DNA from: Rhodospirillales bacterium
Lineage (GTDB): Bacteria; Pseudomonadota; Alphaproteobacteria; Bin95
Length of the DNA: 64,000 nucleotides
Reading direction: 5' to 3'
Assembly (NCBI GenBank): GCA_038143065.1
Contig: JAYQLI010000035.1
Coordinates: 1,632,894 to 1,696,893 of the forward strand
The notes beneath the pieces were generated by a model. The model did no database searches, was not told the DNA's origin, and saw nothing but the letters and a program-made list of their open reading frames with translations. Position numbers and translations under genes: made by a program. This document shows, one piece after another, positions 8,350 to 60,863 of this stretch (its first letter is position 1; each line of letters opens with the position of its first letter).

Positions 8350-9198
8350 ATGAAAGTAGATCAAATAGCCGGCGCGCTCGGTGCAGACGTCACTGAGATT
8401 GATATCTCAGCGCCGCTTACAGATATCCAACTAAACGCAATAAAGGTGGCACTTTGGCAATATGGAGTGCTGGCATTTCGCAATCAAACCATATCACCAG
8501 CCCAACAGCTTTCCTTTGTAAAGCAATTCGGAGAAATCCATTACCACCCCCATGTAAAGGGCCTTCCAGAGCAACCAGAGGTCATGGAAATCTTAAAAAG
8601 AGAGGAAGATCTCCATAACTTTGGATCAGGCTGGCATACAGACCAGATGTTTACTCCAAAGCCTTCAAATTACACCTGTCTATATGCGAAAGAACTGCCT
8701 GATACTGGTGGTGATACACTGTATGCCTGCATGAGAAATGGCTTTCGGACATTATCACCCGCGATGCAGAAATTGGCTCAAACACTGAAAACGGAAAACC
8801 GTTCCTTTGCGGCACAACTTTCAGGGCGAAATCAAACTTCAGCTGGATATTTTGGAGCTGGGATGAGGACCCAAGAGGCGACAGCTGATGAAACCTTGAT
8901 CCAACATCCTGTTGTGCGAAAGCATCCTGAGACAAGCGATCCAGTTCTTTATATAGGTCTACACAGTATTAGGCTTGCTGGATTTACCGAAGATGAAAGT
9001 AAACCTCTCCTAGACTACTGGAAGGCACACCTTGTTGTCCCGGAGAACACAGCACGTCTGCGTTGGCAGCCTGGCACACTTGCCATTTGGGATAACCGAC
9101 TAGTGCTGCATAATGCGGTTAATGACTATCCTGGCAAACGCCGCCGCATGCACCGGATCACGGTTGCTGGAGAGGCAACACAAAGTTGGAAAGCTTGA
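8350..9198 (+). CDS. TauD/TfdA family Fe(II)/2-oxoglutarate dioxygenase
   Basis: WHTD (HxD), GGDTL, HPVVRKHPET, WDNR..LH, RRMHRITV. Confidence 0.92.
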   Translation: MKVDQIAGALGADVTEIDISAPLTDIQLNAIKVALWQYGVLAFRNQTISPAQQLSFVKQFGEIHYHPHVKGLPEQPEVMEILKREEDLHNFGSGWHTDQMFTPKPSNYTCLYAKELPDTGGDTLYACMRNGFRTLSPAMQKLAQTLKTENRSFAAQLSGRNQTSAGYFGAGMRTQEATADETLIQHPVVRKHPETSDPVLYIGLHSIRLAGFTEDESKPLLDYWKAHLVVPENTARLRWQPGTLAIWDNRLVLHNAVNDYPGKRRRMHRITVAGEATQSWKA

Positions 9199-9206
9199 GG
9201 AAAGCG

Positions 9207-10868
9207 ATGACTTCTAATCCCACAAATGTAGATCCAATCACAACATCTGTTATCCAGCATCGGTTGACTGCCATTGTCGAAGAAATGGGCGAAGCGATGC
9301 TTCGAACGTCTTATTCTCAGATACTGAATTCCTCACGGGATTTTTCTGCTGCTATGGTCGATAGCGACTGTCAGCTTGTAGCCCAGGCCGAGCATATACC
9401 GGTGCACGTTGGGGCGATGCCATGGGCGGCAAAGGCTGTAAGAGATTACTTTGGCGAGGACGTTAGTGAAGGCGATTTATTCCTCGTGAACGACCCCTAT
9501 TTGGGCTACGGCAGCCATCTCCCGGATGTCACCGTGTTTGCACCAGTATTTATTGAAGGAAGTGTAGCCTTTTGGACTATCAACCGAGCTCACCATTCAG
9601 ATATTGGTGGTTCAACCCACGGTGCCTACAACCCTTCAGCAACCGAGATATTTCACGAAGGCCTCCGTATACCACCCTTGCGACTTTGGGAGCGAGGTAA
9701 GCCAAAACAAGATTTACTCGACATGCTCGCAGCAAATGTGCGTCACCCGCGTGACTTTAAGGGCGATCTTGCTGCTCAAATTGGGTCTGTCAAACTTGGC
9801 GAGCGGAGACTAAAGGCACTCGTTGATGGATTTGGCGCAAAAGTTGTTCTTCAATCCTGCAGACAAATTTTGGATGGAGCAGAAGCTCGTGCGCGGGCGG
9901 AAATAGAAACTTGGAAAGACTGAAAATATTTTGGCGAGGCTACTCTAGATGACGATGGTCATGGCCGTGAAAATATCAAAATTCGCGCCAGTGTGACGGT
10001 GCAAGGTTCGAATGTTGAGGTAGACCTTTCAGATAGTGATCCTGAAAGTACCGCTTTCGTTAATTCCTCTTTCGCAAATATGCAGTCAGCTTGCGCACAA
10101 ACTCTTGCCTATTTGATCGACCCAACTATCCCAAAAAACGCGGGCGCATTCCGACCGATGAGTGTTATTGCGAAACAAGGCACTATTGTTTGGTCAAATG
10201 ATGGGCTGCCTGTAACTATGTGCACTAGTCATTGTTCAAACGAAATTATCGAGGCCATCATTGTCGCTTTGTCCGAAGCCTGTCCGGACAAAGCAATGGC
10301 TGGATGGGGCAGACGACTTCGCATTGCCATCAAAGGGGAAGATCCTCGCAACGGAAAAACTTTTATTTGGCATATGTTCCACGCTCGCCCTGGAGCTGGC
10401 GCCTCTCCTGGGGGTGATGGTTGGCACAATGCAGGTGAATGGCATTCAGCAGGAGGCCTAAAATTCGGCAGCGTGGAAGTGGCTGAAGCCCGCTTTCCTC
10501 TTCATTTTTGTCGGCATGAATTTAGGCCAAATTCAGGGGGAGCGGGTCAGTTTCGAGGCGGCACGGGTGTAGACATGGAAATGGTAGTTGAGACCTTAGG
10601 AGATGCTGTAGCTAATACCGCTGGCGATGGCCAACGTCATGGAGCTCGCGGTATTTTGGGTGGCTTAGATGGAGAGCCTCACTTCTATCGACAAAAGGGA
10701 AGCAACGGAATTGAGCTTCCCCTTCCCTCGAAAGCTACTGGCTTGCCGGTTAAGTCGGGGGACGTGTTTATAGTTTCATCTGGTGGAGGCGGCGGATGGG
10801 GACAGCCAAAAATGCGCACAGATGATTGTCACTCGGATGATCTGGCTGACGGCTTCGTAACAAATTAA
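9207..10868 (+). CDS. Hydantoinase B/5-oxoprolinase family protein; in-frame TGA at 9921-9923
   Basis: LRTSYS, RDFS, IPVHVG, NDPY..SHLPD, HHSDIGG, EGLRIPP, GGGGWG; ORFs 9186-9923 and 9993-10868 are in the same frame (WKD*KYFGEATLDDDG). Confidence 0.88.
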
Positions 10869-38717: not shown

Positions 38718-39980
38718 TTAATGCGCGACAGCCGCTGCCCCATGCTCGTCAATCAGATATCCTGTTTCAAAGCGACTTAAGGTAAATGGAGCATTGATTT
38801 GGTGCGGCTCACCATTTGCGATCGTATGAGCTAAAGTCCAGCCAGATGAGGGGGTCGCCTTAAAGCCTCCAGTTCCCCATCCACAATTGATGAAAAGGCC
38901 TGGTACCGGCGTCAAACCGATAATTGGTGATGCGTCAGGACAAACATCTACAATGCCTGCCCAAGTTCGAAGAACACGAACGCTACTGAACATTGGGAAG
39001 AGCTCGCAGGCCGCCGCCATTTGTTCTTCAATAATGTGGAGGGCTCCACGCTGCGTGTACGAAGTGTAGGGATCAATCCCCGCCCCCAAAACTAGCTCGC
39101 CCTTATCCGACTGGCTTACGTAAACATGAACCTGGTTGGACATCACAACGCAATCAAGCACTGGTCTCAGAGGTTCCGATACAAGGGCTTGCAATGGATG
39201 ACTTTCAATAGGCAGCCTAAATCCAGCCATCTCCGCAAGAACACTCGAATGGCCGGCAGTTACAAGCGCTCCCTTCTTTGCTCGAATAGTTCCACGGGTA
39301 GTTTCAACCCCCTCAAAAGACCCATCCGCTCTGCGCAAAATACTAGTCACTTCAGCATTTTCGATAATATCGACACCTAGCCGGTCTGCAGCTCTTGCAT
39401 AACCCCAGACGACCGCGTCGTGCCGCGCAGTACCTCCGCGACGCTGCAATGTCGCTCCAAGAACTGGCCATCTTTTTTCAGATGAAATATCAATGAGGGG
39501 GCAGAACGCTTTCACACCATCTGCATCGAGCCACTCTGCATCTATGCCGTTAAGATTATTAGCGTTAACGCGTCTCACACTCTCACGGACGTCATGCAAA
39601 GTGTGCGCTAAATTGAGCACGCCGCGCTGACTGAACATAACGTTCACATTCAAGTCTTGGGACAAACCTTCCCAGAGCTTTAAACCATGCTCGTAAATGG
39701 CTGCACTTTCATCCCAAAGGTAATTTGATCGAACAATTGTGGTATTTCGACCAGCGTTGCCCCCGCCAATCCAACCTTTTTCAACTACCGCTACATTTGT
39801 GATGCCGTGCAACTTTGCGAGGTAATACGCCGTCGCGAGACCGTGCCCGCCGCCACCTACAATGATTACATCATAGTAAGACTTTGGCTCGGGGTTTCGG
39901 CGCCAAGGCTTCCACCCCTTATTCCCGCCCAGCGCTTCACGAAGAATACGCCAGGCTGAAAAACGATCGTCCTGCATCAA
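38718..39980 (-). CDS. soxB: Sarcosine oxidase subunit beta family protein
   Basis: [53 protein letters not shown]-terminal HGAAAVAH. Confidence 0.92.
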
Positions 39981-39990
39981 CGAAGATTAA

Positions 39991-41289
39991 TCAGTGATAA
40001 ACCAACGTCGGAAGCCATGTTGCGATTGATGGCGCGGCGATCAGAATGAGGATCATTGCCAACATAGCAACAACGAATGGTGTTGCACCTAGAGCGACGT
40101 CGTTGAACTTACCACCGCGATCTCGAATACCTTGTACGACATACAGATTAACACCGATTGGAGGCGTAATGAGTGCCGCTTCCATCAAAATCGTGATGAG
40201 AATTCCAAACCAAACATCCGAAAACTCTGGAACACCAAGTGCCATAACAATTGGGAACACCACCGGAATCGTCGTCAGCATCATCGACAGCGTTTCCATG
40301 AACATGCCGAGAAGCAAATAGAAAAAGACGATGAGCAATATTGTCTGGATAGGTGTAAGGCCTAGCTCGGCGATAAAGTTAAGCATCGCTTGTGTGATGC
40401 CCATAAAGCCCAACACAAAATTCAAGAAAATAGCAGCAAAGACGATAATCATAATCATCGCCGTAGTACGCATGGTTCCCTCGAATGCTTCTAGAAGCAT
40501 TTTGACGTTCAGTGACTTAAAATAGGCTGCGATGAGCAGTGACATCACCACGCCGATTGAGGCTGCTTCTGTTGGCGTAGCAACACCAGCATAAATCGAT
40601 CCAACTACGGCAGAAAACAACACAATTGGAGGAAGAAGGGCTGGCAACGTGCTGATCCGCTGGCCCCAACTCGTCTGAACCTTCTCGCCGCCCCAATCTT
40701 TTCTGTAAAGGCACGCAATGGCAATAACACCCATAAATAGAAGTGCTAAAATTATGCCAGGGATGATGCCTGCGAGATAAAGCTCTGGGACAGATGTATC
40801 GGTCAGCAGACCGTAAAGGATCATGTTAATCGATGGAGGCACTAAGATACCCAAAGTACCGCCGGCGGCGAGCGACCCTAAGAATAGGCTCTCGTTGTAT
40901 TTGCGTTTCTCAATTTCTGGATAAGCCACGGTTCCAACTGTTGCTGCCGTTGCCACACTAGATCCAGAGGAAGCAGCAAAGATGGTGCAAGAGCCAATGT
41001 TAGCGTGCATGAGACCGCCAGGTAGCCAAGACAGCCATTGGATGACTGCACCGTACATACGGCGTGCAATCCCAGCGCGAAGCATAATCTCTCCAAGCAG
41101 GATAAACATTGGAACAGCAACAAGGATAAATTCCTTTGATTTATCCCAAACAATTTCACCTATGCCGAGCGTTAAACGCCCATCCATAGCGATCTCGTCC
41201 AGTACAAAGCTGAGGATGCCCAGCACCGCCGCTACAGGGACAGCGGCGACAACTAAAATCAAAAGTCCGATCAGGATCCACGCAACCAT
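39991..41289 (-). CDS. dctM: TRAP transporter large permease
   Basis: LVAVPMFIL, SGSSVATAAT, AAGGTLGILVPPS, TPTEAA, ITPPIGVNL. Confidence 0.93.
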   Translation of the reverse strand: MVAWILIGLLILVVAAVPVAAVLGILSFVLDEIAMDGRLTLGIGEIVWDKSKEFILVAVPMFILLGEIMLRAGIARRMYGAVIQWLSWLPGGLMHANIGSCTIFAASSGSSVATAATVGTVAYPEIEKRKYNESLFLGSLAAGGTLGILVPPSINMILYGLLTDTSVPELYLAGIIPGIILALLFMGVIAIACLYRKDWGGEKVQTSWGQRISTLPALLPPIVLFSAVVGSIYAGVATPTEAASIGVVMSLLIAAYFKSLNVKMLLEAFEGTMRTTAMIMIIVFAAIFLNFVLGFMGITQAMLNFIAELGLTPIQTILLIVFFYLLLGMFMETLSMMLTTIPVVFPIVMALGVPEFSDVWFGILITILMEAALITPPIGVNLYVVQGIRDRGGKFNDVALGATPFVVAMLAMILILIAAPSIATWLPTLVYH

Positions 41290-41292
41290 CGA

Positions 41293-41895
41293 TCAGGCTC
41301 CCTTCGCCTTGCTGGCTTCCATTACATCGATACCAGCAGTTTCTTCCTCAACCACTTCATCGATTGATGGAACACCGGCAATCTTGCGAACTAAATCAAA
41401 ATTTCTTTGGAGAAGCGCCACAAGCGCATAGAGGGTAACGAAAATCAAAACACAGAAGAATACGACCAGCCCCATCGCCCAGAAAAATTGCGGTATCCAT
41501 TGAGGAGTTTCAAGCGTCGTAATCGATACGGAACCCAACTCCCAGCTTTCAAGAAAAGCAAGAACTGCAGTCGAGGTCATGAACCACATGTAATAAAGGA
41601 GTAAGGCCAACCCCACTACGTCCAACGTCGCAGATACTGGCCGCGGAAGTAAATTATAAAGCGCATCAATTCTCACATTTGATCGATGCATCAGGGTGTA
41701 GGAATAGGCCCACGTAGTCGAAGCGGCAAATACGTATCCAGAAATTTCGTCCGATCCACTCATGGTAATACCGAGAAATTTCCGACAAAGAACGTCGATT
41801 GTCACAATAACCGCAGCTACCATCAGTGCGGCACCGCCAGCCCAAACCAGCCAACGAGAGAGTGTTTCCAATCTAGCGTGTATTGCTGCCATCAT
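41293..41895 (-). CDS. dctQ: TRAP transporter small permease
   Basis: Four TM helices, DV..R, DEI, NVRID; lies between dctP and dctM. Confidence 0.9.
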   Translation of the reverse strand: MMAAIHARLETLSRWLVWAGGAALMVAAVIVTIDVLCRKFLGITMSGSDEISGYVFAASTTWAYSYTLMHRSNVRIDALYNLLPRPVSATLDVVGLALLLYYMWFMTSTAVLAFLESWELGSVSITTLETPQWIPQFFWAMGLVVFFCVLIFVTLYALVALLQRNFDLVRKIAGVPSIDEVVEEETAGIDVMEASKAKGA

Positions 41896-41943
41896 CGCTT
41901 GAGCCCTCCAGGCTTAAACCAAAAAACTGCTACTTTATAGGAA

Positions 41944-41978
41944 GGGGGCGCCGCGCACTTTGAGGACGCGGCGCCCCC
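41944..41978 (-). terminator. GC-rich hairpin after dctP (mRNA-stabilising or attenuating stem-loop)
   Basis: Perfect 12-bp inverted repeat GGGGGCGCCGCG (41944-41955) / CGCGGCGCCCCC (41967-41978) with an 11-nt loop; only a weak U-tract follows. Confidence 0.7.
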
Positions 41979-42014
41979 AGTCTCATAAAGTGACAAATCT
42001 GAACAGTAAGCTAC

Positions 42015-43088
42015 TTACTTAAGCTTAGCTGTCAGGCCTGCCATCTTACCAAGGGTCGCATTCCACTCATCGACGCACTTCTGGGTTCCGCAACGCTTCG
42101 CCCAACGTGCAACAACGACGTTCTCAACAACATCCTTGAGCTTATCTTTGTCAGCACCCTTGATCTCGATTGGGGTCATGTTGCCTGGCTTGCCAAGATC
42201 ACAAGGACCTTGAGCATTACAGTCCATGCCCCGCTGATCGTTAACGCGGGTTGCCTTCCACATTGCATCGTAAAGAGGTGACATTTGGTCGGACATAAGC
42301 TTCTGCCCCTCAGCCCCAAGGCTATTCCAAGCTTTGTTGTTCATAGCCAAGAATGAGGATGCATATCCGAGACGAACCCGAATGTTGTGGGTAACAACCT
42401 GCCACCACTTTGCATTGTAGGCAGGCAACGTGCCTGTCACGCCGCAGTCGGCGACACCCTTTTGAAGGGCAGGTACAACTTCCGCAAACGCGATGGTTAC
42501 AGCTGAACCACCAACGCCCTCGATGACATCACCAAGAGTGGTTGAATAGGTGCGGATTTTCTTACCCTTGAGGTCAGCAAGCGACACATTGGTGTTGCTG
42601 CGGTCGCCCAAGTTGCACCAGAATTGCTGACTTGGCCATGCATACAAGAGGAGAAGCTTTGAATTGTATTTCTCATTGAACTCACGAGCGATAATAGGCT
42701 CATAAGCGTTCAGAGCCTTCTCATAAGTTGCTACGTCCTGGAATACGCCTGCAAGGTCAGCGCCCTCAATTGCGGGCGAGTCCTGAGCGACATAACCCGT
42801 AACACCGTGAACGGCGTCATATGTGCCAATTTTGAGAAGCTTCATAATTTCGAAACCAGACAAACCAACTTCGGTTTGAGACTTCGCATTAGCGGTGTAC
42901 TTACCGCCAGAAACCTTTGGAAGGGTCTCATTCCAGAAAGGGCCTTCACGCTCTTTCCAGTGATCAAGGAAGCCCCAGGTACCAACGACCGTGAACTTCT
43001 TTGCCTTTAATTCGGCTTGGGCAGCGCCCCCACCGACGGCGAGGCCGAGTGCAACAGCACCTGCCATAGCCAGTTTTAATGCTTTCAT
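42015..43088 (-). CDS. dctP: TRAP transporter substrate-binding protein
   Basis: Signal peptide, DLKGKKIR, FAEVVPALQKGVADC; RBS CAGGAG. Confidence 0.92.
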   Translation of the reverse strand: MKALKLAMAGAVALGLAVGGGAAQAELKAKKFTVVGTWGFLDHWKEREGPFWNETLPKVSGGKYTANAKSQTEVGLSGFEIMKLLKIGTYDAVHGVTGYVAQDSPAIEGADLAGVFQDVATYEKALNAYEPIIAREFNEKYNSKLLLLYAWPSQQFWCNLGDRSNTNVSLADLKGKKIRTYSTTLGDVIEGVGGSAVTIAFAEVVPALQKGVADCGVTGTLPAYNAKWWQVVTHNIRVRLGYASSFLAMNNKAWNSLGAEGQKLMSDQMSPLYDAMWKATRVNDQRGMDCNAQGPCDLGKPGNMTPIEIKGADKDKLKDVVENVVVARWAKRCGTQKCVDEWNATLGKMAGLTAKLK

Positions 43089-43171
43089 AAAAAATCTCCT
43101 GTTCTACTAACGGACTATGTTATAGCCCAAACAAACGCGTTTTTCCAAGGAGTTAACCTTTAGAACGCCTC

Positions 43172-44007
43172 TTACGCAGACCAGCGCATGCTGACTGCAT
43201 CACTTAATCCGTCCCCAATCAGCATCGCACCGGGGGGTGTGTGATGCAAATAGGTGGACGGGCATTTTGCAGGACGAGCTGAGGAGTAACCCCGCAAGCC
43301 CAAAAAACAGGTACTTCACCTTCTCGAATTTCAACCGCATCACCCCAATCAGGTGCCATCACATCATTGATACCAATGGCACTTGGATCGCCAATGTGCA
43401 GTGGGGCTCCATGAGCAGCCTTGAAGCGTGATGTAATTTCAATAGCCTTCAATGCGTCTGATGGTTTCATAGGGCGCATTGAACATACTGTATTGCCAGT
43501 GAATGCGCCAACTGGCCGACATGGGATATTGGTAGCGTACATTGGGACAGTTGCCCCTGTCTCGATATGCCTGAGGCCAATGCCGGCTTTCATAAGGGCA
43601 TCCTCAAAACTAAAGGAACAGCCAAGCACAAATCCTACATAATCATCCTGCCAAAGGGCACTAATATCAGACACTGTCTCCGATAATTCACCATCTCTAT
43701 AAACATTGTAGCTTGGTGCATCCGTGCGAATATCAACATCATCACCCATGTCGGGAAGCATGGGATCACCAGGGGCAGTCATTGCCACTACAGGGCAGGG
43801 CTTTGGGTTTCGATGGCAGAAAATTGCAAATTCAAGGGCCAAATCCTTAGGCAAAACTGCCAAGTTTCCTTGCAGGCGGCCAAGTGCCATCCCAGCAGTA
43901 TGACTAGTATGGATCCCCGCACGGATCAGACGCCGTGCCGCTACAGGCGAAACGCTTGGGTCCTCTGCGCTGTGCTGCGACAATTGAATTGGCTTGGCGA
44001 CGCTCAT
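43172..44007 (-). CDS. DUF1445/D-glutamate-cyclase-like putative hydro-lyase; frameshift near 43232
   Basis: HTAGMA.G..Q.NL, FC.RNPKPCP, DIRTD.P.Y, GCSFSFE, SMRP, HGAP.HIG, PVFWACGVTPQ, ITH.PG.ML; G-run indel near 43232. Confidence 0.88.
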
Positions 44008-45555: not shown

Positions 45556-46841
45556 CTGCCTCGCATTACTGAAAAAACTGCACCTCCAGGCGTTCCGTTC
45601 AATCTACCTTTCTATTACGGATGGGCCATCGTAGCGTGCGCCTTTGCAACAATGGCGGTCGGCGTAAATGCGCGCACGGCTTTCTCCCTTTTATATCCAG
45701 CTATCTTGGCGGAATTTAATTGGGCTCGCGGAGAAACAGCCGGAGCTTTCGCCTTAGGTTTTATTTTCGCTGCCGCAATGGGGCCCTTTACGGGCGCACT
45801 ACTGACACGCTTTGGGCCGCGCGTCGTCATGCCTCTTGGGTCAGTGATGATGGCGGCAGGCATCGCTTCAACGACGTGGATCTCTCAACCCTGGATGCTG
45901 TATCCAAGCTTTGGAATGCTGGTTGTCGGCGGCAGCACCATTCTGGGTTATATCGGCGACAGCGCTACACTGCCGCTGTGGTTTCAGAAAAGACGCGGCC
46001 TTGCCGTAGGAATAGCTTTTGCTGGTGTTGGCGTTGGCGCAATGGTCGTGCTGCCATTAACTTCTTGGATCATTCAGGGAAGTGGATGGCGAGATGCGTG
46101 CTGGGCCATTGCAGCTATAATTATTTTCTCTTAATTCCCCTCAACCTAATCGTACAGCGCCGAAGTCCCGAAGACCTGGGTCTCTTGCCAGATGGAGCAA
46201 ACTCGGAAGCAGTTAAACAAGGGGAAAAACCGAAACCATCCCCAGCGGGCCCTTCACTGCGCGACGCTCTCAAAATGCGAACATTTTGGTTCTTCGCCGC
46301 ATCGACCTTTGGAATGCTTTGGTGCTGGTATGCAGTCCAAGTACACCAAACGCAGTACCTTTTGGATAAAGGTTTTGATCCAGCAATTGCAACCTTGGCA
46401 CTCTCCCTTGTCAGTGTCTTTGGCGTAGCGGGCCAAATCAATGGCGGTTGGATGTCAGACAAATTAGGACGTGAAGGCGCGTGGACTATCGGCTTGCTAG
46501 GGTTTGCAGGCTGCTATGCCGCTTTATTTCTGATGAGCTCAAATACCTCCCCTCTAATTCTGTGGGGAATGGTAATCATGCAGGGCTTAATTGGTTATGG
46601 AGTGACCGCTATCTTTGCCAGCGCTCCAGCTGATGTCTTTCAGGGCAGGAGTTTCTCAACAATCTTTGGAACATTGAGTATTTTCTCATCCCTTGGCGGG
46701 GGAATTGGTCCTTACGTAACCGGTTTAATTTATGACCTAGATGGCGACTACTCTCGCGCATTCCTGATTTGCATTGGGTGGTGCGCCGTAAGCATCCTTA
46801 CAATGTGGCTCGCCGCACCAAGACGGTACAGACGCCGCTAG
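45556..46841 (+). CDS. MFS transporter; frameshift near 46125, start uncertain
   Basis: PFYYGW, EFNWARG, WFQKRRGLAVG, PEDLGLLPDG, GWMSDKLGR. Confidence 0.82.
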
Positions 46842-46846
46842 TACCT

Positions 46847-48043
46847 CTAAATCCCCGAGAGGCTTTTAATGGCATCAGCGCCGTAACCAAGGCCAGATAG
46901 AATTTCTTCATTATGTTGACCGGGTTGAGGTGGCGGTGAAGTTAAGCGGCCACCACCATGCTCAAGTCGAAAACCCGTACTCGCTAACGTCATTGGACCA
47001 AAACGCGTTTCAACAGTTTGCAGTATGTCACGATGCTGAAGCTGAGGATGTTTAACAATCTCATCGATCGTCCAAATCGATGCGCATGGCGCACCCCCAT
47101 CTGTTAAACGCTTTTCCCACCCGACAGCATCATCACGAGCTAGAACGGTTTCGATCTCCATCCTGAGAGCCTGCTCATTTGAAAGTCGATCATCCCAAGT
47201 CTTGAAGCGGGGATCCTCGTTGAGACGCTCTAATCCAAGTGTCTTTAATAGCGCTTCATATTGTCGGTCATTATTGACTGCAAGAAGCAACCAACCATGC
47301 TTTACGCGAAACAAGTTGGCTGTTGGACGACGGCTAACTGCCTGATTTCCCATTTGGCGCTGTTTGTGGCCAGCGACCGTATATTCCGCAACCGCTGGCG
47401 AAAGAAAAGCTAATGTAGCATCCAGCATTGCCACATCCACCATCTGACCTTTTCCAGTATGCGTACGCTGATAAAGAGCACTAGCTACTGCAAAAGCTGC
47501 CGTCATTCCGCCAATAGCATCACACACGGCAAAGCCTGCCCGCGTCGGCCCCATTTCCTCGTGGCCGGTCAAAGACATTATGCCACTCATTGCCTGGATC
47601 TTACCGTCATATGCGGCCGTCTGACTGTCAGGGCCGTTATGGCCAAAGCCGGAAACGGCGCAGTAGATAATCTTCGGATTGATTTGCTTAAGGGCATCAT
47701 AGCCCAAACCCAAACGATCCATCACGCCAGGTCTAAAATTCTCCATGACTACATCAGTTTCAGCAATAAGTTTTTGGCAAACCTCAATGGCTGTTGGATT
47801 TTTTAGATCGAGGGTCAAATTTCTTTTATTGGCATTAACGCAGGCCCACATCGGAGCCATACCCCTCTCCGCCCAATCCGGCGCAGGGGGCGAGAAACGC
47901 ATATCTTCACCGCCAGGTTTCTCGACTTTAATTACATCTGCACCCAGCAATGCAAGCTGATAACTTCCAAAGGGACCAGCAAATACTTGAGTGAAGTCTA
48001 GTATCTTGATCCCATCAAAGGGACGAGCACCTGGCGCCGTCAT
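46847..48043 (-). CDS. Family III (CaiB/BaiF) CoA-transferase
   Basis: GIKILDFTQVFAGP, LGADVIKVE, NANKR..LDLK, ENFRPGVM..LGLGY, SGFG, catalytic Asp region GFAVCDAIGG, PPQPGQH; ATGA overlap with the upstream selenoprotein. Confidence 0.93.
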   Translation of the reverse strand: MTAPGARPFDGIKILDFTQVFAGPFGSYQLALLGADVIKVEKPGGEDMRFSPPAPDWAERGMAPMWACVNANKRNLTLDLKNPTAIEVCQKLIAETDVVMENFRPGVMDRLGLGYDALKQINPKIIYCAVSGFGHNGPDSQTAAYDGKIQAMSGIMSLTGHEEMGPTRAGFAVCDAIGGMTAAFAVASALYQRTHTGKGQMVDVAMLDATLAFLSPAVAEYTVAGHKQRQMGNQAVSRRPTANLFRVKHGWLLLAVNNDRQYEALLKTLGLERLNEDPRFKTWDDRLSNEQALRMEIETVLARDDAVGWEKRLTDGGAPCASIWTIDEIVKHPQLQHRDILQTVETRFGPMTLASTGFRLEHGGGRLTSPPPQPGQHNEEILSGLGYGADAIKSLSGI

Positions 48044-48972
48044 GCAGCATCTCCTTCACGTTTTGCTTTTGCTATTTCCTTTCCCCTATCAAACTCCGCT
48101 TTCAAACGAATGATTTCCTTAGGAGAAAGCTTCTCCACGTTAGAATAATCCTCCTTCCAAGTAGGATTTTCAGACCAACGAATAGGGTTCTGCCAAGTGG
48201 TCATAGGACCAGGTGCATTAGCCAAAAGGTCGAGTGCATAACCAAGGGTTAAATACTGACTTTCCTGATCGTGCGGCCGTCCACTGGGGTTCCCGAGTGG
48301 AAAATCACTGAACAGAAAACGGGGAGCCCCAACGTATTCAACAATATCTTTCGCACAGCCCATAATGACTGTTGGTATTCCTGCTTGCTCTAAAGCTCGT
48401 GCAATCAGACACACGGTCTGATGGCAAACGGGTCAATTAGCAGCTAAGACGGCAACATCCGCCTTATCTTCTTGCGTCCGTCTAACGATTTCTTGGGCAT
48501 CTACCTCGATGGTAACACGGTGACTTCTGTTGGTCGGAGCTCCATGGAACCGAGGTGCCACCTCGCCAATGCGTCCCTCTTCTGCCATTCGCCTCAACAT
48601 AGGCAGCGGGAACCAAACTCCTGGGTCTTCCTGGCTGGTGTGTTTCCGATCTATACCGATGTGAGAAATTCTTAGATCGTGGTCTTCATCACTAGCGCCA
48701 GAGTAGACTTCATAGAATTTAGCCTTTGAGTTGTATGCACTCCACGGGCCCTGATCTCCAGCCTCGGGATTGTAAGGAGCGGCCGTTGTCACCAAAGTAA
48801 CGCGGCTTTCCTGCAAAGGCTTCTTTAGAGGAGAGAACGGGGCATCAGCATAGTGACCCCACTCATAAGGCTTCCCATAACCAAGAGTTACATAGTAGTC
48901 GCGGATCCGTTGCAAGTATCGGATCGGCTGGTCATCAGCTAGCGCAAAGCCGTAAGGGTTGTCATCAGACAT
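48040..48972 (-). CDS. Selenoprotein, glycine/sarcosine/betaine/D-proline reductase selenoprotein B (GrdB/PrdB)-like; Sec (TGA) at 48433-48435
   Basis: ORFs 48433-49188 and 48040-48414 are in one frame separated only by TGA, reading VAVLAAN-U-PVCHQTV (UxxC); PrdB-like features KPLQESRVTLVTTA, FPL..L..M..EG.IG, ARALE.AGIPTV, FP.G.P.G; ATG 48972 after GGAGG; SECIS-like hairpin follows; 310 aa, U180. Confidence 0.88.
48398..48432 (-). promoter_or_regulatory. Bacterial SECIS-like stem-loop directly 3' of the Sec UGA
   Basis: mRNA reads UGA CCCGUU UGC C AUCAGAC [CGUGU] GUCUGAU U GCA CG: perfect 7-bp upper stem, 5-nt G-containing loop beginning 17 nt after UGA, 3-bp lower stem. Confidence 0.78.
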
Positions 48973-49084
48973 TCCAACCTCCTCTCTTTTCATTTGAGAC
49001 CCTACAGCATGTAAAAGTAACTGGAAAAGTGTTTGCTGCTGTGCTTCGATTAAATTTATAACCTCAAAACTGGAGGAAAAGGCC

Positions 49085-49939
49085 ATGACATATCGGCATA
49101 TCGAAGCAACTCCGATCTCAGGTGCGCTCGGCGCTCTAATCACTCGCGCTGATCTCTCCCAACTAAATGACGATGTATTCCAGGACATTCATCAGGCATT
49201 TCTGGAATACCAGGTCATATTTTTTCGTGACCAAGATATCACGCCTGAGCAGCAAATTGACTTGGCACGACGCTTTGGGGAAATCCATCACCACCCCTAC
49301 ATGAAGGGTATGGACGAGTACCCTGACATCTTGGAAATCCTGAAGGAGCCAGGTGACAGTTATACCTTTGGAGCCGCTTGGCACTCAGACCAAATGTTCA
49401 ATCCTTCCCCCGCAAAAGCCACCATGCTTTATGCCAAGGAAACACCCTCAGTTGGCGGGGATACTATGTTCTCGAGCATGTACAAAGCCTATGACGGCCT
49501 GTCGGACGCAATGCGCGATATGCTTAAAACGGTTAAAACGTTCAACGTAGGCGATCGATTTAAAAACATGGGCGGAGGCGCCCGATCAGAGCGTTATGCA
49601 GGCAATCCAAAAATGGCGAATAAGGTTCGCGATCCTGGCAATCTGATTACGGAGTCTCATCACCCACTTTTTAGGACCCATCCCGAAACAGGACGTAAAG
49701 CTCTCTACATAGGCAGTCACACGCAAGGTCTAGAGGGAATGCGGAGTGAAGAAGCAGACCCTATCGTTGACTACCTTAGAACGCATTCAATTAGGCCAGA
49801 GTACTTATGTCGTTTCCAATGGAAACCCGGTTCTTTGGCGCTTTGGGACAATAGGTGCGTCCAACATTACGCGGTTCCCGACTACAATGAACGTCGGCGG
49901 ATGCACAGGATTACTATTGCAGGTGACGTACCAGTCTAG
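49085..49939 (+). CDS. TauD/TfdA family Fe(II)/2-oxoglutarate dioxygenase
   Basis: WHSD, GGDTMF, HPLFRTHPETGRKALY, WDNRCVQH, RRMHRITIAGD. Confidence 0.92.
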   Translation: MTYRHIEATPISGALGALITRADLSQLNDDVFQDIHQAFLEYQVIFFRDQDITPEQQIDLARRFGEIHHHPYMKGMDEYPDILEILKEPGDSYTFGAAWHSDQMFNPSPAKATMLYAKETPSVGGDTMFSSMYKAYDGLSDAMRDMLKTVKTFNVGDRFKNMGGGARSERYAGNPKMANKVRDPGNLITESHHPLFRTHPETGRKALYIGSHTQGLEGMRSEEADPIVDYLRTHSIRPEYLCRFQWKPGSLALWDNRCVQHYAVPDYNERRRMHRITIAGDVPV

Positions 49940-49944
49940 GGCTT

Positions 49945-51675
49945 TTAATTTCCTCTGAGAGCAGCCGTAGCTTTTGCATCTATTTTGCCATCAACATCTA
50001 CAACGACTTTGTAGTGGTCTAGCGCAGCCTCAACGGTAACTAGACCATTGGCTACGTCTCGAGATATAGCGGTGAGGTCACGAGCAGTTGCCTCACCAAG
50101 GCCTCCACCGCCAGGCATCTGCAGAACAAGTCGTTCGCCACTTGGAACAGTCTGTCGTCCCTTACCTTTCAGCACCTGCCCAGATTGCAAACCTATCGTG
50201 CCCACCGCTCCTGAGCCGCCACCATCCCTACCTCTTGGTGGATGAATCACCCGATCAAACATGCTGGAAATGGCAAAAGGCGCACCTTGCGCGTGCTCTA
50301 TTTCCATTATCTGACCAACTCCACCGCGATACTGGCCAGCTCCGCCTGAGTCTGGACGGTATTCCTTCTTCCAGAAAACCAAGGGGGCAATGGTCTCATT
50401 GACCTCTACAGGCGTATTACGCACACCAGACGGAAAGGCAGTTGCATCTAGGCCATCCTTTTCTGGCCTAGCCCCAGCTCCACCCGTATGAAAAACATTC
50501 ATCGCAAAAGGGCGGGCTTGGCCATAATCTCCATCAACAACACCGTGCCCCCCCATAAGAACAGGGTTCCAAAGACACGAAGTGCCCTCCGCAGGGCTCC
50601 TTTCTGGCGCTATCTGATGCAAACACCCCAATACAACATCCGGCAACATCTGCCCTGTCACATGACGGGCGGTAACAGCTGCGGGGTGAGGCGCATTCAA
50701 TATACATCCAGAGGGCGCCGTTATCTTTACTGCCTCCAGAGACCCCGCATTGTTAGGCACGCGGTTACCCACAACACAACGGACACCAAAGCTTGCATAG
50801 GCCTCAGTGTAGGTCATTGGCACGTTAATCCCATAGCCAGAGACAGGTGAAGTGCCGCTAAAATCTACCTCTATCGTATCATCTGTGATCGTCATTGTGG
50901 CAACGATATCAACATGTTTTTCGTAGCCATCTATACGCATAGAATTTTTGTAAACGCCTTTTGGCAACTTTGCGATTTCGTCCGCCATTCCCTTTCGGCT
51001 TGAAGTGATAATGTGTTCAGCGAGAGGCTCAATCGAGGCCATCTCAAACTCATCCATCATCGCAACTAGCCTGCGCGAGCCAACATCATTGCAGGCAACT
51101 AATGAGTAAAGATCTCCCTCGACTTCGACAGGATTTCTATTGTTGGCGGCTATAATATCGAGGACCGTGCGGTTCATACGACCACCCTCAGCCAGCCTCA
51201 TAATTGGGATGTTGATACCCTCTTCATAAACTTGTCGACCATCAGCACCAAAACCCCTGCCACCAATGTCTGCAACGTGCGTAGTACAGGCAAAGAGCGC
51301 CACAATTTCACCATTACGCCATGTGGGGGTTACGACTGTAAAATCATTCAGGTGCCCTGTGCCCAACCAAGGGTCATTGGTAAGGAAAACGTCACCTTCT
51401 GACATCGTCTCCAGAGGAAATTTTTCTATGAAGTGACGGACCGAAGCGGCCATAGCATTCACATGACCAGGCGTACCCGTGACAGCCTGAGCTAACATCC
51501 GCCCGCTCGGATCATAAACCCCAGCAGAGATGTCACCCGCTTCACGTGCGGAAGTTGAGAAAGCTGTTCGAATTAGCGTCTGCGCCTGTTCTTCAACAAC
51601 TGATAGAAGGCGGTTCCATTGGATCTGCATTCCAATACGGTCAAGAACATTAGTTTTAGAGTGAGAACCTGACAT
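49945..51675 (-). CDS. Hydantoinase B/5-oxoprolinase family protein
   Basis: LIRTAFS..ARE.GD, GTPGH, NDPW.GTGHLND, HVADIGG, YEEG..IP, PGGGG.G. Confidence 0.92.
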   Translation of the reverse strand: MSGSHSKTNVLDRIGMQIQWNRLLSVVEEQAQTLIRTAFSTSAREAGDISAGVYDPSGRMLAQAVTGTPGHVNAMAASVRHFIEKFPLETMSEGDVFLTNDPWLGTGHLNDFTVVTPTWRNGEIVALFACTTHVADIGGRGFGADGRQVYEEGINIPIMRLAEGGRMNRTVLDIIAANNRNPVEVEGDLYSLVACNDVGSRRLVAMMDEFEMASIEPLAEHIITSSRKGMADEIAKLPKGVYKNSMRIDGYEKHVDIVATMTITDDTIEVDFSGTSPVSGYGINVPMTYTEAYASFGVRCVVGNRVPNNAGSLEAVKITAPSGCILNAPHPAAVTARHVTGQMLPDVVLGCLHQIAPERSPAEGTSCLWNPVLMGGHGVVDGDYGQARPFAMNVFHTGGAGARPEKDGLDATAFPSGVRNTPVEVNETIAPLVFWKKEYRPDSGGAGQYRGGVGQIMEIEHAQGAPFAISSMFDRVIHPPRGRDGGGSGAVGTIGLQSGQVLKGKGRQTVPSGERLVLQMPGGGGLGEATARDLTAISRDVANGLVTVEAALDHYKVVVDVDGKIDAKATAALRGN

Positions 51676-53774
51676 TAATTCGTCTCCCCCTTGGCTGTCA
51701 TAACAATGTAATCACGCTCATCGATGTGAGCTTGAAAAGTTGAAGCAACGACAGTCGTTGTCTGAGGTTCAACAATGAGGGCGGGGCCAGAGATCCGAGA
51801 ACCAGGCTTCAACTCAAATCTATCGAAAAGACCAGCGGTCACAAATTCTTGCTGCGTCGCGTCGAACAGCTCCCTCGTCTGAGTTGGCGCCGTAAAATCA
51901 GCATCAAGGACCACCTCTTCCAAACTCTTCGAACTCGAAGACTTCCCAGTAGATACAGTCAAAGTCCAGCTAAGAATTTCTGGTTGCATTCCAGGAACAG
52001 TCTGTCCGTAAAGTGCGGTGTAGGCCTCATTAAAACTCTCAAGAAGATTTTGATTATCTTCTTGAACCAAAGGCCTATCTGGTAGCGGCACAGTAATCTC
52101 ATGCCCCTGACCCACATACCGCATGTAGGCGAGGCGCGTTTCTGTAAGTTTAGCTCCAACAGCTCCCGCCTCGACAACAGCCCTAGCCTCACGGCTCATA
52201 TCCTCTAAAAGTCGGTTAGCTCCATTCGCATCAAAACCATCGAGCCTCGTGTAACGGCTTCTAACTACTTCATATGAAATTGGTGCACGAAGAAAACCAA
52301 CGGCAGATCCCACACCCGCTCCACTCGGAACAATTACTCGATTAAGTCCGAGCTTTTCCGCAAGCCTTGAAGCGTGCAAAGGGGCCGCGCCTCCGAAGGC
52401 AATCATTGTCCGTTCAGCAATATCTTTGCCCCATTCAATCGCATGAACGCGCGCCGCATTAGCCATGTTTTCGTCGACGATTTCAGCAATAGCAAAGGCG
52501 GCTAAGGGTGTAGGCATGTTCAGCGGCCTACCAACTTCGGCATGGATAGCATCTCCCGCCTTTTCTGGAACCAAACGAACATTGCCACCAGCAAAGCGCT
52601 CAGGAGAAATTTTTCCCAAGGTGACATCGGCATCCGTTACAGATGGTTGTGTTCCTCCGAGGTCATAGCATGCCGGTCCAGGATGCGAGCCTGCACTTTC
52701 AGGTCCTACTTCAAGACGCCCCATGCCATCGACATGCGCCAAACTTCCTCCACCCGCACCAATCTCAACCATCTCAATGGCAGGAATGCGTACTGGCAAG
52801 CCACTACCTTTTAGATTTCGATAGGCACGTGCAACTTCAAAAGTACGCGTCGAAAGTGGCTGCCCATCGTCAATTAGACAGATCTTTGCTGTAGTTCCTC
52901 CCATGTCATAGGAAACAACACGGTCAAGACCAGCCTCACCAGCCACCTCTGCCGCAAGAATTGCTCCTCCAGCCGGACCCGACTCGACCAACCTGATTGG
53001 AAAACGAATTGCATTTTCTAACGTCGTCAAACCACCGCCCGACGTCATAAGCAAAAAGGGACAATCAAAACCCATGTCCCTTAATCGGGCATCTAGAGCG
53101 GTAAGATAGGCAGCCATTTTGGGCTGGACATATGCATTAGCGCAGGTTGTGGACTGACGCTCGTACTCACGGATCTCTGGACAAACTTCCGAGGAAATCG
53201 AGACAGGCAAATCGGGAAAGGCCGATTTAACAATTTCACGCACCCGTTCCTCATGAGCAGGGTTCGCGTAAGCGTGCAGTAAGCCGACGGCGAGTGCTTC
53301 GATGTGATACTTTTCAATTAATGGAAGAACTGCTCGGACGCTTTCCTCATCCAACTCAATTAATGGATCACCTGCCACATTCATCCGCTCTCGTACTGGC
53401 CAACGCAGCTCTCTCGGAGCCAGTGGCAAAGGACGATCAATCATGATGTCGTACTGCTCGAAACGGTTTTCTAGCGCCATTTCCACAGCATCACGGTGGC
53501 CTTGAGTAGTTAGGAGAGCAATTTTTGCACCTTTACGCTCAATAATGGCATTTGTGGCCAGTGTGGTTCCGTGGATTAGTAGGCCAACAGCACCAGGAGT
53601 GATATTCGCTTCAGCCAACGCCTTTGCAACGCCATCTAAAACGCCCTCCTCTGGGGCGGATGGAGTGGTTAGAACCTTGGCCGTTGTTTGATTACTGCCA
53701 TGCTGCAAGACCACATCAGTAAAAGTTCCACCTATATCAACTGCAAGACGGACGTCACTTTTAGCCGTTGCCAT
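51675..53774 (-). CDS. Hydantoinase A/5-oxoprolinase family ATP-dependent subunit
   Basis: VDIGGTFTD, HGTTLATN, ESGPAGG, DMGGTT, IGAGGGS, GP.SAG..PGPACY, AFGGA, MRYVGQG.E. Confidence 0.93.
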   Translation of the reverse strand: MATAKSDVRLAVDIGGTFTDVVLQHGSNQTTAKVLTTPSAPEEGVLDGVAKALAEANITPGAVGLLIHGTTLATNAIIERKGAKIALLTTQGHRDAVEMALENRFEQYDIMIDRPLPLAPRELRWPVRERMNVAGDPLIELDEESVRAVLPLIEKYHIEALAVGLLHAYANPAHEERVREIVKSAFPDLPVSISSEVCPEIREYERQSTTCANAYVQPKMAAYLTALDARLRDMGFDCPFLLMTSGGGLTTLENAIRFPIRLVESGPAGGAILAAEVAGEAGLDRVVSYDMGGTTAKICLIDDGQPLSTRTFEVARAYRNLKGSGLPVRIPAIEMVEIGAGGGSLAHVDGMGRLEVGPESAGSHPGPACYDLGGTQPSVTDADVTLGKISPERFAGGNVRLVPEKAGDAIHAEVGRPLNMPTPLAAFAIAEIVDENMANAARVHAIEWGKDIAERTMIAFGGAAPLHASRLAEKLGLNRVIVPSGAGVGSAVGFLRAPISYEVVRSRYTRLDGFDANGANRLLEDMSREARAVVEAGAVGAKLTETRLAYMRYVGQGHEITVPLPDRPLVQEDNQNLLESFNEAYTALYGQTVPGMQPEILSWTLTVSTGKSSSSKSLEEVVLDADFTAPTQTRELFDATQQEFVTAGLFDRFELKPGSRISGPALIVEPQTTTVVASTFQAHIDERDYIVMTAKGETN

Positions 53775-53864
53775 TCCGCACACCTTCCCTCAGAAGAAAT
53801 TCCGCGCCAGACTGTCGCCTGATGCGCATTGGAGCGCAAGTTTTTGTAGACGAAAAAGGTTAAC

Positions 53865-58532: not shown

Positions 58533-58691
58533 CCGTGAACACAGGTCGATAATTTTTAGAAATAATGCAGGGCTTCTGGGCCAAATGCCTCGCGGGTTCC
58601 CCAAAAATTATAATCGCAAACATTTATCTCGCTTATGGACGGCAGACGCCCTACTTACCTAAAATGCTGTCTTAACATTGGAGCAGGCAAA

Positions 58692-60863
58692 ATGGTCGAG
58701 AGAATTTCCGCAGGTGGATTACAAGTTGCTAAACCTCTTCACGATTTTATTCAAACAGAGGCTCTACCTGGGTCAGGCGTCGATGCAACCGCTTTCTGGG
58801 ACGCGTTAGGCAACCTCATTCACGACTTAGCTCCTAAGAACCGTGCACTTCTTGCAAAGCGAGAAGAGCTGCAATAGCAAATAGATAATTGGCACAACGC
58901 TCGCAGGGGTCAGCCTCATGACCACAATGCCTACGTAAAGTTTCTTGGCGAGATTGGGTATCTTGTGCCTGAAGGAGCCGACTTCAATATCGACACGCCA
59001 GATGTTGATGATGAAATCGCGACGATTGCTGGTCCGCAACTTGTAGTTCCAGTTATGAACGCGCGTTATGCTCTCAATGCAGCCAATGCGCGCTGGGGAA
59101 GCCTTTATGATGCGTTGTATGGCACTGATGCAATTTCTGAAGATGACGGCGCAACCCGTGCCGGTGGCTACAATCCAACACGCGGCTCGAAGGTTATAGG
59201 TTGGGCCCGGGAATTCTTGGATGCGTCATGCCCACTTTCTAGTGGCAGCCATAAAGACGCTACTGAATATGTGATAGATAGCAGCACCCTCTCAGTAAAA
59301 ATGAGCGATGGTTCTACTAGTGGTCTGAAAGACGTGGGCGCCTTTGCCGGCTTCAGAGGTGATGCGGCCAACCCTTCTGCAATCCTCTTACGAAATAACA
59401 GCCTTCACGTCGAAATTTCAATCGACCGCAGCCACCCAATTGGCAAAGATGATAAGGCTGGCATTGCTGACGTAGTGTTAGAGTCTGCCATCACAACGAT
59501 CATGGATCTTGAAGATTCAATCGCGGCTGTGGATGCAGAAGACAAGGCTGACGCTTACCGAAATTGGTTAGGTCTGTTGAGTGGCGACCTTGAAGACTCT
59601 TTCGAGAAGGGTGGGTCGATGATGACCCGTAAGCTCAATCCAGACAGAGAGTACAAGGGGGCAGACGGACAAAATCTAACTTTGCCTGGTCGATCCTTGA
59701 TGCTTGTGCGGAATGTTGGCCACCTTATGACCAACCCAGCGGTTCTAGATAGGGATGGCGCAGAAGCACCTGAAGGCCTCCTTGATGCGATGATCACGGG
59801 GCTTATTTCCCTTCATGACGGTAAAGGTGCTAATGGCCTAAAGAATAGCCGCAAGGGTTCTCTTTACGTTGTAAAACCTAAAATGCATGGACCAGAAGAA
59901 GTTGCCTTTGCTAATGAAATTTTTGGTCGTGTCGAAGACGCACTAGGAATGAAGCGCAACACAATCAAGATGGGCATCATGGATGAGGAACGCCGCACAT
60001 CGGCTAACCTCAAAGAGTGTATCCGTGCAGCCAAAAGCCGAGTTGCATTCATCAACACCGGGTTCCTAGACCGCACAGGCGACGAGATGCATACGTCCAT
60101 GGAAGCAGGTCCAATGATCCGAAAGGCAGACATGAAGGGAACCAAATGGATCGCTGCCTACGAAAATAGAAACGTTGATATTGGCATTGAAGCTGGCCTA
60201 CCCGGCCGCGCTCAAATCGGTAAAGGTATGTGGGCGATGCCGGACCTTATGGCCGATATGCTTGATCAAAAAATTGGTCATCCAAAATCAGGTGCCAATA
60301 CGGCTTGGGTACCATCACCAACTGCTGCAACTTTGCACGCGACCCACTACCATCAGGTAAATGTGCCGTCTCTGCAGAAAACATTAGCGTCACGTGGACG
60401 TGGCAGCTTAGATGATATGCTAACCATACCTGTGGCTGATCGACCAAATTGGTCAGACGAAGAAATCCGACAAGAACTAGACAATAATGCCCAAGGAATT
60501 CTTGGATATGTTGTCCGCTGGGTAGACCAAGGTGTTGGCTGCTCTAAAGTTCCTGACATTAATGACATAGGCTTGATGGAAGACCGCGCCACGTGCCGTA
60601 TTTCCAGCCAGCACATTGCAAATTGGCTCCACCATGGTGTTTGTACACGCGAGCAAGTGGAGACAACTATGCAGCGAATGGCTACAGTAGTGGACCGCCA
60701 AAACTCTGGTGATCCAGCTTATAGGCCTATGGCACCAAGCTTTGATGGTGTTGCATACAAGGCCGCGTGCGATCTTGTATTCGAGGGAACCTCCCAGCCA
60801 TCTGGGTACACCGAGCCTGTACTCCACCGTCGTCGCCTCGAGAGAAAGGCGCAGCATAGATAG
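58692..60863 (+). CDS. glcB: Malate synthase G; in-frame TAG at 58875-58877
   Basis: [72 protein letters not shown]; upstream ORF is in the same frame (REELQ*QIDNWH). Confidence 0.95.

Follow-up and report, generated by a model that had tools for sequence, protein, structure and literature searches.

A probable selenoprotein gene of the PrdB/GrdB superfamily, split by gene callers, in an uncultured alphaproteobacterium

When an otherwise open reading frame is interrupted by a single TGA, is the gene broken or is the codon read as an amino acid? We address this question for a minus-strand gene in a 64,000-nucleotide stretch of a Rhodospirillales genome (GenBank assembly GCA_038143065.1, contig JAYQLI010000035.1, positions 1,632,894 to 1,696,893), hereafter the window, where an earlier sequence-only reading had proposed a hidden selenoprotein related to the clostridial reductase subunits PrdB and GrdB. 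One frame runs from an ATG at 48972-48970 to a TGA at 48042-48040, and its sole internal stop is the TGA at 48433-48435, codon 180; the coordinates proposed for it are exact, as is the GGAGG placed ahead of the start. An ordinary listing of open reading frames cuts the same gene into two pieces, 48433..49188 and 48040..48414. The features on which the argument turns are the following.

48040..48972, minus strand: predicted coding sequence of the PrdB/GrdB-superfamily selenoprotein, 310 residues (U180, C183, C206), including the true stop TGA at 48042-48040
48433..48435, minus strand: UGA codon 180, predicted to be read as selenocysteine (Sec), aligned with an invariant Cys
48424..48426, minus strand: codon of Cys183, the putative resolving Cys in UxxC, conserved in every one of 21 aligned sequences
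48978..48982, minus strand: Shine-Dalgarno GGAGG, 5 bases 5' of the ATG at 48972, from direct reading of the sequence
48398..48430, minus strand: hairpin of the selenocysteine insertion sequence (SECIS) type, from RNAfold and a comparison of Sec and Cys forms

An in-frame TGA at an invariant cysteine column

Read through the TGA, the frame gives the motif N179-U180-P-V-C183-H-Q, with Cys183 three codons past the TGA as had been noticed, and the N-termini of aligned homologues begin a few residues at most from M1. We consider it very probable, from the comparisons set out below, that TGA 48433-48435 is a genuine selenocysteine codon in an intact PrdB/GrdB-superfamily gene. This confidence extends to the selenoprotein reading alone; the chemistry that we propose for the product is far less certain.

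The recoded column was followed across 80 related loci from one-per-species genomes, of which a strict motif resolved 78, the other two (L022 and L068, both TGA) being resolved separately. It holds TGC in 48 loci and TGT in eight, that is, a cysteine codon in 56 of the 80, and TGA in 24. Across an alignment of 21 sequences N179, C180, P181, C183, H184 and Q185 are invariant, together with a third cysteine, C206, in keeping with the earlier claim that the TGA falls at a catalytic Cys/Sec position. Closer to home we examined a set of 41 genomes made up of the window's own and 40 of its kin. Matches were present in 28 of them, including all 24 that belong to the same family, where each genome holds one to four matches and most hold two to three. 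Exactly one TGA occurs in 62 of the 63 matches listed, the exception being G033:C14, and TGA is found in sister species at each level of identity, 96%, 91% and 70-76%.

What lies beyond the codon also appears to be maintained. In nine comparisons with Sec-form orthologues, pN/pS ranged from 0.04 to 0.27 on the 5' side of the TGA and from 0.08 to 0.34 on the 3' side; by this measure the 130 codons past the TGA are translated and under purifying selection. Recurrent TGA, the hairpin, the Sec machinery and this downstream selection together support the 310-residue selenoenzyme with a U180/C183 pair that had been proposed.

The codon is also present in independently assembled sequence. Contigs from four sequencing runs, three from other DNA studies and one from an RNA library (whose contig is by itself no proof of transcription), bridge TGA 48433-48435. 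Among the differences listed for these contigs none lies anywhere in 48398-48435, and the nearest, at 48397 and 48393, are both synonymous third positions. In run X10, 48802-48965 is among the parts of the stretch that have no contig cover. In run X8, an estuary metagenome, three other contigs, of which one has 4968 bases, agree with the window solely over 39 bases, 48397-48436, which are exactly the TGA and the hairpin, and diverge on both flanks: other genes in that community share a near-identical recoding element. This near-invariant 39-base combination of TGA and hairpin could serve as a signature by which to find and annotate the family.

A candidate SECIS, the host machinery and the ancestry of the codon

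The hairpin that had been seen directly past the TGA occupies minus-strand positions 48430-48398. Its upper stem pairs AUCAGAC (48422-48416) with GUCUGAU (48410-48404) around an apical loop CGUGU (48415-48411), and a short lower stem flanks it. What makes the element persuasive is its distribution. The core CAGAC-N5-GUCUG is found in all 23 Sec forms compared and in one of 56 Cys forms, and when all loci are considered, every one of the 46 distinct Sec-form genes has CAGAC-N5-GU(C/U)UG, with a single G-U wobble variant, even though the 46 include paralogues at just 41-48% protein identity. Many Cys forms encode the identical peptide PVCHQTVSL, so that Sec and Cys forms differ at synonymous sites: Val is written GTG by all 23 Sec forms and by 3 of 56 Cys forms, and the codon after it is AGT in 22 Sec forms (TGT in the window) and in 3 of 56 Cys forms. 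Because the same peptide is written with different codons, the hairpin appears to be kept, through synonymous choices, in the TGA forms. The base ahead of the core stem changes in step with the one it pairs with: CAU goes with A and CAC with G, apart from one U-G wobble. Mean minimum free energy is -19.0 kcal/mol for Sec forms and -16.6 for Cys forms, despite lower G+C in the former (Mann-Whitney p 0.027).

The SECIS of Escherichia coli fdhF is likewise a hairpin inside the coding sequence just past the UGA, with G-U in a small apical loop. In both cases the upper stem begins 10-11 bases past the UGA; the stem sequence differs, and the loop here is of five bases, CGUGA or CGUGU, with no obvious bulged U seen. 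We read the hairpin as a predicted SECIS for the SelB of the host.

The source genome, from estuarine and marine samples, spans 4.63 Mb in 52 contigs at 47.3% G+C and is 97.6% complete and 5.5% contaminated. All the genes for Sec decoding that were looked for are there: selA (468 bits), selB (435 bits) and selD (280 bits) each exceed the curated cut-offs, selA and selB being neighbours with selB at C35:592829-594709, and ARAGORN reports a tRNA-SeC with anticodon tca at G000:C35:2209072-2209168. The tRNA-Sec gene thus stands 1.6 Mb from selB and is not nested within it; nesting of the one in the other is on record for some Alphaproteobacteria (Mukai 2021, as cited in PMC9312934 and PMC13188914). 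The organism had been called apparently aerobic; a gene for haem-copper oxidase subunit I (544 bits) shows capacity for aerobic respiration, though not lifestyle.

Which state of the codon is older? On a FastTree phylogeny of 108 rows (52 Sec, 56 Cys) only three changes of state are needed. Every deep paralogue branch is Sec, and Cys forms cluster mainly in a single large group, Bradyrhizobium with its allies. Since Sec holds the deep branches and Cys is so concentrated, the pattern fits an ancestral Sec that was later replaced by Cys, keeping in mind that the root was not inferred, that the method is a quick one, that long branches were flagged and that five rows duplicate genomes already in the tree.

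Superfamily membership and rival explanations

The protein had been described as PrdB/GrdB-like, a description that holds for the superfamily and not for orthology with either protein. PF07355 (GRDB) matches at 26.8 bits against a gathering cut-off of 22, aligning residues 47-177 with positions 217-345 of a 347-position profile that stops just ahead of Sec180. The best NCBIfam match is PrdB (TIGR04483, 4e-23), with residues 45-251 on profile positions 19-219 of 238, and its 82.1 bits fall far below the equivalog cut-off of 300. TIGR01918 scores 58.7 bits against 65.45 and aligns over profile positions 221-416 of 431 only. On these scores the protein is not an orthologue of PrdB or GrdB; it is a superfamily member made up of a PrdB-sized core (residues ~45-251) with N- and C-terminal extensions.

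Compared with clostridial PrdB, the best-scoring curated family, it shares Sec in a UxxC motif and a core domain of similar size, but carries about 45 extra N-terminal and about 60 extra C-terminal helical residues, has no PrdA partner that we could find, neighbours a coenzyme A (CoA)-transferase gene and a TauD-type dioxygenase gene instead of prd genes, and belongs to a host with an aerobic respiration gene. With GrdB, GrdF and GrdH (TIGR01917, NF040794 and NF040795; subfamily TIGR01918) it shares PF07355, an equivalent Sec position and an alignable C-terminal half; unlike them it corresponds to just the C-terminal half of proteins of about 430 residues, to which the GrdB/F/H models align by their C-terminal halves alone, and no GrdA was found. 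By word-index search we found at least 8000 homologues, with a length of about 312 residues; the best match is full-length and 68% identical. Because it scores full-length products, such a search favours Cys forms. The Cys homologues, from Bradyrhizobium, Hyphomicrobium, Variovorax and others, are 61-69% identical over the full length, carry NCPVCHQ and often have a CoA-transferase gene directly downstream; they differ in having TGC or TGT for TGA and, in all but one of 56, in lacking the hairpin. Their name in the source databases is 'glycine/sarcosine/betaine reductase selenoprotein B family protein'. The UGSC family of (seleno)proteins (NF041046) was considered and rejected, since it reached 17 bits against a cut-off of 125 over residues 150-204 only, a local resemblance around the redox motif.

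An AlphaFold2 model (mean predicted local distance difference test score 76, predicted template modelling score 0.79) shows an alpha/beta sandwich in which the U/C motif opens a helix, residues 181-196, followed by a strand, 201-205, in agreement with the helix that had been described after the motif as AR..E..GIPT. No sequence-related solved structure was found (best E-value 0.21, irrelevant), Foldseek against the Protein Data Bank gave nothing at E <= 0.001, and VIA-align returned only generic three-layer alpha/beta matches of the LacI/periplasmic-binding and short-chain dehydrogenase/reductase types, the best with Z 11.1 over residues 51-272. These searches offer no functional lead, nor are they evidence for a new fold.

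Could the TGA simply be an inactivating nonsense mutation, with at most a 179-residue N-terminal fragment being made? The same genome does contain nonsense codons in otherwise intact genes (TGA 9921-9923 in a hydantoinase B gene and TAG 58875-58877 in malate synthase G), and one paralogue in the family, which has a frameshift and a further stop, seems to have decayed. However, a pseudogene sits poorly with a TGA found at the same column in nearly every match listed across 28 genomes and in 24 of the 80 loci elsewhere, with purifying selection on the 130 codons downstream, and with a hairpin maintained by synonymous choices only where the TGA is present, and we consider it very improbable. A sequencing or assembly error that hides a TGC or TGT, and with it an ordinary Cys form, is less probable still, close to negligible. 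The genome is a metagenome bin and Cys forms are the majority among the species-representative loci, but contigs from three other studies bridge the codon with no listed change there, the sister species at all three levels of identity have TGA, and the Sec-specific hairpin is present.

A further possibility is that the codon is decoded by a route other than Sec, through a code in which UGA means Trp or Gly or through a suppressor tRNA, or that the Sec machinery inserts Cys, as it can when selenium is short. An open frame alone cannot tell which residue is inserted. Against this, the selenoprotein's own terminator is a TGA, overlapping the ATG of the next gene, and other genes in the window end in TGA as well, for example DctQ at 41293-41295, so that UGA is evidently a stop in this organism; moreover, the residue aligned in homologues is Cys rather than Trp or Gly, and the genome has complete Sec machinery. 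We give this explanation about as little credence as the pseudogene. Slightly less improbable, yet still quite unlikely, is that the product is a true D-proline reductase or glycine/betaine reductase B subunit in a Stickland-type complex. The best NCBIfam match is PrdB, the UxxC motif is there, and source databases call many homologues 'D-proline reductase (dithiol) PrdB'. Every score is nevertheless below its curated cut-off, neither a PrdA/GrdE-type gene (PF09338) nor a GrdA-type gene (PF04723) was matched in the genome in searches that lack a positive control, none adjoins the selenoprotein gene either in the window or at any of the 19 loci scanned for neighbours, and the organism has a haem-copper oxidase. 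In addition, the UxxCxxC motif described for GrdB in a 2026 review (PMC13188914) is missing, residues 180, 183 and 186 being U, C and T.

A number of points weigh against the selenoprotein reading and what we build on it. The case for selenium in this PrdB-like protein comes from genes and their comparison, and the proposed chemistry comes from analogy. The window's own 76-nucleotide stretch does not fold significantly better than shuffled sequence (z -1.5; 19 of 200 shuffles as good), and an Rfam scan of 48330-48480 returned chance-level matches only (E 1.3 and 4) and no family, so that the case for the hairpin is a comparative one. Its nucleotide conservation must be partly protein-driven, because it overlaps the strongly conserved peptide PVCHQTV, and true compensatory changes are few. 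The source genome is metagenome-assembled, with 5.5% contamination and other nonsense codons; the bridging data are contigs, not raw reads, and 38 further differences lie beyond those listed. As regards partners, PF09338 had no match in the 97.6%-complete genome but was silent in 14 control genomes too, and PF04723, likewise without a match, was equally silent in control genomes. Finally, beyond the recurring CoA-transferase and TauD pairs taken up below, the neighbours are unrelated from locus to locus, being housekeeping genes or varied ones, so that no pathway can be read from the neighbourhoods.

The two other interrupted genes deserve a comment of their own. The hydantoinase B/oxoprolinase gene at 9126-10865 (plus strand) has its in-frame TGA, 9921-9923, in the middle of a single Pfam domain and aligned with no Cys, and the codon is GGA (Gly) in a 96%-identical sister genome (L127). 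Rather than a Sec codon, it has the look of an assembly error or of a nonsense mutation that arose recently, and it is an in-window control for accidental nonsense; the TGA of the PrdB-like gene behaves in the opposite manner. In malate synthase G, at 58614-60863 (plus strand), the in-frame TAG at 58875-58877 stands in the N-terminal domain and a PF20656 match spans it; this may be a pseudogene or an error.

Neighbouring genes, possible chemistry and relatives elsewhere

The genes that surround the selenoprotein gene are as follows.

46847..48043, minus strand: family III CoA-transferase gene (PF02515, 387 bits)
49085..49939, plus strand: divergent gene for a TauD/TfdA-type 2-oxoglutarate dioxygenase (PF02668, 227 bits)
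38718-39980: DAO-type flavoprotein
39991-43088: TRAP transporter DctPQM
43219-44007: D-glutamate cyclase
49945-53783: hydantoinase/oxoprolinase A and B genes

The ATG of the CoA-transferase gene overlaps the stop of the selenoprotein gene (ATGA at 48043-48040), an overlap that suggests translational coupling of the two. Among curated families the transferase comes closest to succinate-glutarate CoA-transferase, with 270 bits where the cut-off is 750. Of the 80 related loci, 33 have a CoA-transferase III gene downstream, 32 of them directly so; these include Hyphomicrobium, several Alphaproteobacteria and a Variovorax, but many are Bradyrhizobium and so not independent, and some of the 80 loci are cut by contig ends. 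Within the genus the CoA-transferase gene is present at 4 of 10 loci and the divergent TauD-type dioxygenase gene at all 10, the latter also at L013-L015. Neighbours were scanned with Pfam at 15 and then six loci, which leaves 19 once L013 and L100, duplicates of genomes already counted, are set aside. A promoter and terminator scan of 46600-49300 found sites no commoner than in shuffled sequence. The genes around the selenoprotein gene (38718-44007 and 49945-53783) show a cyclic or D-amino-acid theme, and the wider neighbourhood also holds a thiolase gene; a link to 5-oxoproline, D-glutamate or glutarate metabolism is suggested, no more.

How might the product work? The analysis establishes the signals for recoding, the genes of the Sec machinery, the conservation and the membership in the superfamily; chemistry, reductant and substrate we infer. 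UGA codon 180 would be decoded as selenocysteine during translation, with the hairpin a few bases past it acting as a bacterial SECIS that recruits SelB and Sec-tRNA(Sec) to the ribosome, and the second TGA, 130 codons on and with no such hairpin, would terminate. The result would be a stand-alone 310-residue protein whose redox pair, U180-x-x-C183, stands at the N-terminal end of a helix. Drawing an analogy to PrdB, we suggest that the selenolate may attack an electrophilic carbon beside the carbonyl of a small substrate, the selenium adduct may be resolved by Cys183 to give a selenenyl-sulfide, and a dithiol such as thioredoxin may re-reduce it. On this analogy the protein is probably a selenol/thiol reductase. 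Its substrate is probably not proline or glycine, given that no PrdA/GrdE pyruvoyl gene was found and that a family III CoA-transferase appears to be coupled to it; the protein may act on a CoA-activated acid or feed one.

Putting these strands together, we tentatively suggest, as a proposal that may well be wrong, that the stand-alone PrdB-like proteins, Sec or Cys, of aerobic Alpha- and Betaproteobacteria are not Stickland reductases but an uncharacterised class of selenol/thiol-dependent reductases that lack a pyruvoyl subunit, work with a family III CoA-transferase and cleave reductively beside the carbonyl of a CoA-activated or lactam-type substrate, a class ancestrally Sec and Cys-replaced in some soil lineages. 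Within that proposal the substrate in the window could come from 5-oxoproline, D-glutamate or glutarate metabolism, in view of the nearby D-glutamate cyclase, the oxoprolinase-type hydantoinase A/B genes and a CoA-transferase nearest to succinate-glutarate CoA-transferase. The CoA-transferase partner, together with Cys homologues in culturable Bradyrhizobium, offers a practical route to function.

How new is such a gene? The sequence-only reading had rated it as a surprise, and in this it went too far, for UxxC 'PrdB' selenoproteins with pfam07355 were already among the most abundant surface-ocean families. The Sargasso Sea survey (Zhang, Fomenko and Gladyshev 2005, PMC1088965) reports 'Proline reductase (PrdB)' with UxxC as its third most abundant selenoprotein family, with 42 Sec genes, and the Global Ocean Sampling survey (Zhang and Gladyshev 2008, PMC2398784) counts 235 Sec genes and 110 Cys homologues of 'Proline reductase PrdB' (pfam07355, UxxC) over 38 samples. 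The window's gene resembles these marine metagenomic proteins in pfam07355, Sec in UxxC, a bacterial SECIS and an origin in oxygenated marine water; the survey passages on the family give no operon context and no function past the PrdB label. Compared by such described features, not by sequence, it is likely to belong to the same subfamily. Given the abundance of 'PrdB' selenoproteins in both data sets, it is a fresh member of a kind already known, and the finding, real as it is, is nothing unusual in the field: a correctly recognised selenoprotein whose gene is split by gene callers.

A 2006 genome survey (PMC1794560) counts one selenoprotein family for Alphaproteobacteria and names FdhA as the sole selenoprotein in those that decode Sec, and the 2026 review has aerobic bacteria rarely keeping selenoproteins (PMC13188914). 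Our literature searches led to reviews and surveys; among the papers found, none was an experimental study of stand-alone PrdB-like proteins from aerobes and none tests the function of the family. Ocean metagenomes have shown the family in abundance for twenty years, with 'proline reductase' as a borrowed label. Ordinary gene callers split or truncate the gene and its two to four paralogues per genome in this uncultured alphaproteobacterial family, and a correct reading adds selenoproteins to organisms with aerobic respiration genes. The new points are modest: a TGA and hairpin signature strictly conserved across paralogues, a uniform Sec state with multiple copies in an uncultured estuarine and marine family, and a recurring CoA-transferase partner.

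The source genome holds further members of the superfamily. A third gene, at G000:C35:2092632-2093258 (minus strand), is 34% identical, has an intact frame with one TGA in U-P-N-C and shows by eye a stem GCGC/GCGC around the same loop CGUGU, a pairing that RNAfold did not return; it is probably another selenoprotein. In the paralogue at G000:C35:2335039-2335840 (minus strand) the TGA and its canonical hairpin are retained, but the N-terminal half contains a frameshift and one additional stop; the counterpart in a sister genome (L117 in G008) is intact. Either the copy is decaying or the assembly is in error here. For the distant paralogues L118-L121, about 35% identical and with one TGA each, a motif search gave no U-P-x-C. 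Lastly, Cys-form genes 63-66% identical to that of the window stand on contigs titled Streptomycetaceae (L038), Frankia sp. RB7 (L041) and Akkermansiaceae (L085). In the tree L041 falls among loci titled Bradyrhizobium, and L038 and L085 fall in a mixed Cys clade with loci from Casimicrobiaceae and from Hyphomicrobiales metagenome-assembled genomes; the contigs may be contaminants or mis-binned, or the genes may have been transferred.

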